In this document: positions 45,563 to 48,500 of the stretch, piece by piece
Numbering within the stretch: the first letter of the stretch is position 1
Layout: every line of letters begins with the position of its first letter
Assembly (NCBI GenBank): GCA_035084275.1
Contig: CM068750.1
Location: 4,774,001 to 4,838,000, forward strand
Direction: 5' to 3'
Length of the DNA stretch: 64,000 nt
Origin: Hydrolagus colliei
Lineage: Eukaryota
Program-made: the position numbers and the translations under genes
Notes under the pieces: model-generated
Seen by the model: the letters and a program-made list of their open reading frames with translations, nothing else
Database searches by the model: none
Told to the model about the DNA's origin: nothing

Positions 45563-48500
45563 CTAATAAAAGAAAATAAGAGAAAAAAAACATTAATCTG
45601 TTCACATTTGTGGCTACTTTAATTCGGAAAATTAAATTGAAATTCTGGATGCTGCTGCATTGCGATGAACCCAAAGGACAAATGGAGGTAATTACCTCTT
45701 TTTCAAATTCTTGCTCAGGATCTGATATTTTACGTGATGAAACAGCTTCCCCACCTAAACAAGAGGATAAACAGTGAAATAAGGTTTGACATTTTTTTTT
45801 TGGCAGGTGTTTCATTTTTTACTATTGGAACATATGGGGGAAAGGACATAAGAATATACCATTGGTATAAGTTTTCAACTCATTCCTGATCCAAATATAA
45901 AGGATTTCAACTTGAAGTTATAGTTTAGCCCTTTTTGAATCTGTCCCTACTTCTATGTTTCTACTCTGCAAAGGATATGGGGAGACAGTAGGGGAGTGGG
46001 ACTGATTTGGTAGCACTTCTAAAGAGCCAGCATAGGCACAGTGGCTGAATAGCCTCTTTCTGTGCTGTAATATTCCATAATAAGCAAAAAGAGCCACTGA
46101 CAATCTTTTAAACATGGTGCAATCATGATGTTCAGAAGTTGAGCTTCTATCGTGTCAACTTAAACCGACTGCATTTTCTGTTCACAATCTTTTCTCACCG
46201 GATTGACTTTTCATATTAAATCGGAACTTTAGCTACTGACTGGTTTAGCTAACAGTGATATTTAGACACAGCTTAAATTATTCCCCCTCCAGTAATAGGG
46301 AAAATTAAACGCCCATTTAAATTAAAGACAAATCAGATTTTTCTTGAGTTTGACAGCTTGTTTGATATACACCAATATCAAATACCCCCCCCCCCCCCCC
46401 CCCTGCCTTGCAAGTATTTAAAGACATGGCCTATTTCTTAGATGATCAAACAATTGAAAGGCATCTCACTGACAAAAACACTCTGCAATTGCAATTTTAA
46501 CAGTCCAATCTTGCCTTCCATTTTCAAGACTCTGCTGGTCGGGTGTTAGGGGATGACACATCTATTTGTTTCAGATTTCCAGCATCTGTAGTATTTTGTG
46601 TTTTGAGATCTATTTGTGTGATCTTTTGAGTTATACAGGAGTCTAGCGGTGTGCAATATTTTTGCAAATACTTTCTTTATACAGTACTTGGGGAAGATGC
46701 TGATTGCTTGCTTTTAAATGACCTGGGAGAGAAAAATTCATGACAATGCAAATAATTTCCATTTTATATATTTCCATGATCGCATCATTAATTACACTAC
46801 CTGATGCTGTACGTGAAATGTATTGCTTGCTTCGCTGTTGCCTTGAAAGACTGGAATGGGAAGCCCGTTTCTCTCTTGATGGCTCATCTTGTGATACTGG
46901 TGACACACTCTGCAGTAATAAGTGAAAATTAAAAACATTTCCACTCCCCTTTATAAAGAAATGCTCAACACCTTTATAAACAATGAGCTCAAGATGATTT
47001 TGCTTTTGGAGGGCTTAGCCAGCTGCAATTTGGGATAGGTATTCCTACCCTGACTGAGGTAGAGGAACAGGGGCAGGAAGAGGAAGAGAGCAGAGGGAAG
47101 CCTTGCAGTGAGGAGTGATCATTCTGGAGATAGAGTTCAGCAGAGAGTGTGTTCATGTGATAGATGTGCTCGAAGTCGGTTGGAGGAGAAATCTGGGCAT
47201 GCTGTCGAGAGGATGAGGGGGAAGGAAAATCATTCTGCTAAGTCAACAAAAGGAAACAGACTAGTTAATTATCTTAGGAATAATATCAACAAAACTAGTA
47301 TTATTCTACGATTCCATCATTTTTACAACAGGTTCAGATTTTATGCCAAACTTTCACAGAAATGATTGGGTCATAAAGAATTAACTTAATGATTTAATCT
47401 TCCGATTTGCATTTAAGAATCGTAAAACTCAAGTGTTTTTTTTAAAAAGTAGCATTTAGAACTTGGAAAACTATTTAGATATACTTTTTATGTTTCATAA
47501 AGTAAACTCAAAAAGTGTTGAACGCATAGAAAATACAACGCCAGTGATCATTTGGCCATTCATGCACTTTGTTTTTAAAATATCATTTTTTTTGGAGATA
47601 CTTGCCAGTCAAACACTCCCTGCCTAAACTTGCAAGATCTTGGGTCATATGATTGCCAGTAGACATTTTTTTTTGAACACAAGGTAAATACAACTTTCTG
47701 TGAGGTGTAAAAATCCAAAATATCAATCCTACAATTAAGAGATAATTTTGATTCAAAACAAAACATAGTGTACCGAAAGCACACATTGACGTTTTCACAA
47801 TAAGAGAATTAGAAAGTGCAAATATGCTGAGTGCAAATGCAGTGTTAGATATGCAGTTCAGCAGTTGTGCAATGTTGCTCCATGAATAAATATAGATGAA
47901 GACCTTGCTGAATATTTCGACTTAAATCACTCCATTTGTTTTCGGTACTCCTCAATTTGATTTGCAGGGTGAATAGTACATTGAACAATTCGCATTAGCG
48001 ATAGTTTCCAAATAGGATTTGGATAAAATGTCATCACTCTTCACTACTTCCTACACCAACTTGGTAATTGGACTAAATCGAGACAAGCATTTCAGCTGGG
48101 CCAAAGTATTACAGTGGTTTATTATCTGATCATAATCTTTAAAATGTCCTCCCCGCCCCTATAATTACCAGTGGGAGATCCATGAGCACTTGCATTCCAT
48201 CGCCTGGTCCCATGTGAGCCACATGGTTGAAGTTTGTCGGATTTGATATCAACTTTGACCGCATCTCTGGATCTCTCAGCATCTCTCTGTTATGAAAAGG
48301 ATAACATGTTAAATGCATCAGAAGTTTTTTTTGTCAAACAAAATCTGTGAAACCGTGTTTCCAGAATGAACATTAAAAAAGGATGTCCCACCTCCTTTGT
48401 AGTAATCTTTCTTCTTCTGATACTTTAAATGCAAACCTCTTCTTGCTCCGGGTTCTGAGCATCTGCTTCTTGCTGTTATCGGAGGTGTCTGGCACAGTCA

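Follow-up and report, generated by a model that had tools for sequence, protein, structure and literature searches.

The MRCK-beta gene of Hydrolagus colliei carries, between its canonical CRIB exon and the next exon, a putative cassette exon that encodes a second CRIB motif. From sequence comparison, we consider it probable that the segment is a conserved alternative exon that preserves the reading frame and, when included, places another CRIB at a distance of 41-42 residues from the first, and that the added motif is likely to raise the avidity of the kinase for membrane-bound Cdc42-GTP. The exon is real and ancient, yet it is already present in public protein annotation for many fish, amphibians, reptiles, and birds. 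The window analysed here is a stretch of 64,000 nucleotides of contig CM068750.1; its features are collected in Table 1.

Gene identity and exon anatomy

The gene in the window (contig C17) is assigned to MRCK-beta (CDC42BPB) because its large CNH-domain exon falls in the MRCK-beta clade of a CNH-exon tree with support of 100/99, as sister to Callorhinchus beta. The tree comprised 19 rows, two gamma-like proteins being left out for want of a CNH match, and it ruled out an MRCK-alpha or MRCK-gamma identity of the window gene. A gene on contig C3 of the same genome groups in the alpha clade. Neither a third multi-exon MRCK locus nor MRCK-gamma was found in this genome with a gamma-like query, clusters being located only on C3 and C17 with 41 of 54 candidates scored. 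Two beta proteins used as tblastn queries gave collinear exons along the window, and the order C1-PH-CNH-CRIB at the MRCK-beta C-terminus was recovered by tblastn collinearity and by Pfam matches to CNH and PBD. Two further features were observed along the gene. Contigs of a related species extend at least 1.4 kb past the last coding exon (44000-45433, minus strand), indicating a long conserved 3' UTR. In addition, positions 50476-50560, the vicinity of 49333, and 51920-51952 hold pieces of a very abundant repeat with huge contig depth, presumably a SINE.

The earlier note had described a stop-free, symmetric phase-0 segment of 62-63 codons with good splice signals behind the CRIB exon, and this description is borne out by translation and by inspection of the splice sites. 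Read on the minus strand, 47049-47237 gives 63 codons with zero stops, and the 14-residue second CRIB motif lies inside. A pyrimidine tract precedes tag/CAG/AAT, where either of two acceptors in the same frame (47237 or 47234) could be used; at the other end, the donor is AGG/gtagga at 47049/47048. AG and GT ends, symmetric phase, and an open frame are all present in this segment. The neighbouring exons are also cut at whole codons: the upstream CRIB exon ends at 48169 (CTG/gtaatt), and the exon after the cassette starts at 46909 (cag/AGT). Joining the exons yielded zero stops in the skipping form and in both inclusion forms. The GC content of the segment is 51%, compared with 27-37% in the flanking intron. 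Five stop-free symmetric candidates are found in the 1259-nt intron, all of them using donor 47049. A raw scan for splicing-factor motifs around the exon, without a shuffled comparison, revealed nothing distinctive. The segment had also been said to be missing from the ORF track. The stop-to-stop frame around it is only 82 codons long, and no ATG comes before codon 28; the omission is likely due to this short frame and late ATG.

Table 1. Features of the MRCK-beta gene around the putative cassette exon (positions in the window)
Feature	Position	Strand	Remarks
Large CNH-domain exon	50664..51260	-	Pfam CNH E 2e-50; 96% identical to Callorhinchus beta; beta clade 100/99
Constitutive exon with canonical CRIB (14-residue motif)	48169..48286	-	Pfam PBD 21.7 bits; both sides spliced in relatives' contigs
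Upstream intron	47238..48168	-	931 nt; ends in pyrimidine tract and tandem acceptor tag/cag
Cassette exon, putative	47049..47237	-	189 nt, or 186 nt from second acceptor at 47234; phase 0/0; 63 or 62 codons
Second CRIB motif (14 residues)	47151..47192	-	6/8 core residues; PBD 16.2 bits; 41-42 residues after first motif when included
Downstream intron	46910..47048	-	139 nt; read-through gives 19 codons, then stop; unspliced in relatives' contigs
Next constitutive exon (starts SVSP)	46801..46909	-	Skip joint 46909-48169 in 4/4 runs; tblastn

The second motif and its occurrence in other MRCK-beta proteins

The second motif shares the I-S-x-P-x-x-F-x-H-x-x-H core of the CRIB (p21-Rho-binding) motif, PF00786, of PAK, WASP, ACK, and MRCK. 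Measured against I-S-x-P-x(2-4)-F-x-H-x-x-H-V-G, it keeps six of the eight core residues, compared with seven in the canonical MRCK motif. In contrast to the CRIBs of PF00786, the final V-G of the core is absent, the motif ending in M-N, and it would stand in tandem behind another CRIB. The number of changes is within what a review describes as tolerated, namely one or two core changes with which CRIB motifs can still bind (PMC8847673). With the Pfam PBD model, the cassette exon alone scores 16.2 bits (E 0.013), below the curated gathering cut-off of 21.3, whereas the canonical CRIB exon passes it just barely with 21.7 bits. The fit to the CRIB core that had been proposed for this motif stands at the level of core residues, but the Pfam model suggested as a check leaves it under the cut-off. 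In the PDB, the second motif weakly matches PAK CRIB chains (E 0.27-1.1), and no MRCK CRIB chain was found among the matches. A chance origin of the motif was ruled out by pattern counts: a six-frame scan of the 64-kb window gave two matches to the core pattern, one in each CRIB exon, whereas 40 simulated sequences of 64 kb gave none.

A protein search with the exon alone returned five matches, which are MRCK proteins of Callorhinchus, lungfish, a turtle, reedfish, and budgerigar. Wider searches disclosed the exon also in sturgeon, gar, bowfin, many teleosts including zebrafish, Xenopus and other frogs, anoles, crocodile, and birds, and RefSeq isoforms with the second motif include MRCK-beta of zebrafish, Xenopus, bichir, turtle, and anole. 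In total, 147 proteins were collected: 96 two-motif and seven one-motif proteins of beta type, 31 two-motif proteins of alpha type, and 13 single-motif fragments or odd models, to which the query belongs; because the set was selected for carrying the exon, these counts are not frequencies. Residues S, P, F, E, H, V, Y, H, and M of the beta second motif are invariant in all 95 scored. By these protein comparisons, the exon is conserved across jawed vertebrates in annotated proteins.

Annotated isoforms, which are predicted models, occur with and without the exon. As an illustration, Pelodiscus isoforms X1-X3 include it and X4-X6 do not, and in Polypterus it is present in X1-X5 and X8 and absent from X6-X7. 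Polypterus X1 and X2 differ by a leading Q, which matches the tandem acceptor. About 73 of the 96 two-motif beta proteins run on into the next exon, as estimated by pattern match; the remainder includes the models of Callorhinchus, crocodile, bowfin, and budgerigar, which are not joined to it. At the counterpart of 46910-47048, the models of Callorhinchus, crocodile, bowfin, and herring read past the donor as R-V-G and end in the intron, which reflects either an artefact of gene modelling or a form that retains the intron.

The Hydrolagus exon lies in the same gene and intron as the insert of annotated long MRCK-beta isoforms (Pelodiscus XP_075782627.1, Polypterus XP_039596898.1, Danio rerio X2, Xenopus laevis L homeolog X3, and Callorhinchus A0A4W3IVG1), with the same motif. 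Their inserts comprise 61-63 residues and share the optional leading residue. Compared with the Callorhinchus model, 55 of 63 residues are identical (87%), compared with 96% in the CNH exon; the frame, both splice sites, and the tandem acceptor are common to the two. Unlike the annotated isoforms, the Hydrolagus motif has I at a position that is V in 95/95 beta and 31/31 alpha second motifs, and D where most second motifs have N, and its included form is predicted only.

The novelty that the earlier note had attached to a second CRIB exon in beta, and which it had itself made dependent on the exon being absent from routine CDC42BPB annotation, is lost, as the exon is routine in annotated non-mammalian isoforms. 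A literature search, most subscription journals being outside it, brought up no description of such an exon for MRCK-beta, and the available parts of PMC5879922, PMC3983107, PMC13753119, PMC8489921, and PMC3438190 make no mention of one. No mammal is present among the matches listed (5; 25; 120 of 141) for the beta exon, nor for the alpha control, and since these are cluster representatives only, they are uninformative on loss. Among the matches listed (120 of 141), sharks are represented by alpha isoforms that include the exon (Scyliorhinus, Mustelus) and by no beta isoform.

The MRCK-alpha exon and the age of the duplication

An alternatively spliced second CRIB exon has reportedly been described in human MRCK-alpha (CDC42BPA). 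In the Hydrolagus genome, the corresponding exon is located at L006:6739-6900 on the minus strand (C3:96268738-96268899). It is 162 nt long, in phase 0, lies in the intron that follows the CRIB exon, and shares the donor AGG/gtagg with the beta exon. It has 54 codons, eight fewer than the 62 of the Callorhinchus alpha model, and its core is unchanged. The 300 nt upstream contain 11 YGCY words, a raw count with no comparison set. A Logan contig of 5733 bases (P0106) encodes a 1790-residue alpha protein in which the exon is joined on both sides. In PMC2764345, a CDC42BPA cassette exon, E37, is assigned a cardiac pattern and gain or loss of a PAK box.

The beta exon agrees with this alpha exon in position, phase, and motif signature, both in the gene on C3 and in the 31 alpha proteins. 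The two belong to paralogous genes and differ in the residues after the core (TVHSAENFL and NTLSAELYL), and in Hydrolagus the alpha exon has fewer codons. In a comparison of 22 residues, counted from the start of the motif, identity between alpha and beta second motifs is 69%, in 54 pairs formed by 6 alpha and 9 beta proteins picked to span lineages. Over the same length, second motifs are 44% (alpha) and 50% (beta) identical to their own first motif. The second motif in the window is 61% identical to alpha second motifs and 40% to beta first motifs (22 residues). In an exon that also shares intron position and phase with that of alpha, it is thus nearer to its alpha counterpart than to the first motif of its own gene. 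The proposed homology to the MRCK-alpha exon is thus supported by the animal's own alpha gene.

A single duplication of a CRIB exon before the split of alpha and beta is most likely, because the exons share the intron, the phase, and the donor AGG/gtagg, and because of the 69% identity compared with 44% and 50%; it is drawn from pairwise identities of a short motif, not from a formal tree. These identities also disfavour independent duplication in each paralogue, and the suggestion that the splice-switch exon is older than the alpha/beta duplication is, on the same figures, the most likely one.

With regard to a pre-vertebrate origin, 148 further representatives were inspected. Two motifs were detected by pattern in five, two of which are vertebrate beta proteins. 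In the invertebrate-type proteins P0263 and P0265, the extra motif lies 33 residues before the canonical one, likely as a result of a separate event. In P0224, a second motif with HVYH lies 40 residues behind the first, whereas a single motif is present in each of two Saccoglossus models. Tandem-CRIB tails, with the extra motif before or after the canonical one, were observed in P0224, P0263, P0265/P0310, and P0275, and the comparison suggests that tandem CRIBs may have arisen more than once.

The residues peculiar to the second motif also bear on what it would do. Instead of raising avidity, it could alter specificity by preferring Rac1 or another Cdc42-family GTPase, thereby rewiring the signal that recruits the kinase. 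In both paralogues the second motif has its own invariant F-E-H-V-Y-H-M-S/T, distinct from F-N-H-V/I-A/V-H-M-G of the first motif, and binding of MRCK-alpha to both Rac1 and Cdc42 is reported in the available part of PMC3438190, which is nevertheless silent on the isoform that bound Rac1. As the residue changes could equally tune affinity alone, we regard a switch in specificity as doubtful.

Splicing of the exon and the proposed second anchor

For the species itself, none of the recorded runs is marked as RNA. RNA-type evidence comes from contigs of 4 of 14 listed runs of a related species and is only presumed to represent RNA. The skip joint 46909-48169, with intron ends, was observed in all four runs. 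Contigs over the cassette exon are also present in all four, unspliced, at a depth of 6-14 compared with 36-153 for the skip joint, contig depth being a poor measure. No inclusion joint was found among the 15 joints listed from these runs (130 more are not listed), and contigs drop rare forms. By annotation, the exon is optional: forms with and without it are annotated in two species, Pelodiscus and Polypterus; the skipped form is also present in the relatives' RNA-type contigs. The proposed cassette exon of MRCK-beta, with its second CRIB motif, is supported by exon anatomy and by optional annotated isoforms, but the joints listed in the relatives' contigs show only skipping.

Such contigs would also be expected if the exon were functional in bony vertebrates and decaying or barely spliced in this cartilaginous-fish lineage, where it would mainly give unspliced or intron-retaining RNA that stops 19 codons into the intron. 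Besides the restriction to skip joints and unspliced contigs among the joints listed, this agrees with the Callorhinchus models that end inside the intron, with drift at otherwise invariant positions (I in place of V in the window), with an identity to Callorhinchus below that of the CNH exon, and with shark isoforms that include the exon in alpha but not in beta among the matches listed. Against it, the window and Callorhinchus keep the frame, both splice sites, the tandem acceptor, and 55/63 residues, and the relatives' contigs differ from the window by 41 differences and 5 gaps over 521 bases at the exon (46882-47402), compared with 51 differences and 25 gaps over 394 bases in nearby intron. 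Decay in this lineage is therefore considered unlikely. That the insert is mainly a Ser/Pro-rich spacer or phosphorylation tract, its CRIB-like core a relic of exon duplication, is very improbable, since the core is the most conserved part of the exon in all lineages, even if the 3' half is rich in Ser and differs in length between proteins, as in the 54 and 62 codons of the alpha exon in Hydrolagus and Callorhinchus.

We therefore return to the avidity reading. Inclusion, probably as a minor or tissue-restricted form, would provide each chain with a second putative CRIB that may bind Cdc42-GTP, so that an MRCK dimer would pass from two to four GTPase anchors. The doubled anchors would increase avidity for patches of Cdc42-GTP and strengthen membrane anchoring, and could change where and how long MRCK sits at the cortex, not its catalytic rate. 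Background from two reports concerns the same steps. [quoted passage not shown] MRCK-alpha activity is not raised by Cdc42-GTP in vitro (PMC3940853).

A wider reading, which we put forward tentatively, is that the ancestral vertebrate MRCK already had the tandem-CRIB exon as a splice switch, hitherto undescribed and perhaps older still, as P0224 may suggest. Both paralogues would have kept it since the origin of jawed vertebrates, and beta would have lost it separately in mammals and in sharks; it would have gone unreported for beta in mammal-centred work because of the mammalian loss. The second motif would then set a different avidity or GTPase preference from tissue to tissue.

Control of MRCK kinases is believed to lie in the site at which Cdc42 anchors them, not in activation, and an optional second anchor would for this reason be a plausible tuning device. 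The zebrafish and Xenopus beta isoforms make this idea testable. That both paralogues have retained the exon, from chimaeras to reptiles and frogs, speaks for a function. As the exon itself is already publicly annotated, the gain here is in its evolutionary reading, not in a discovery.
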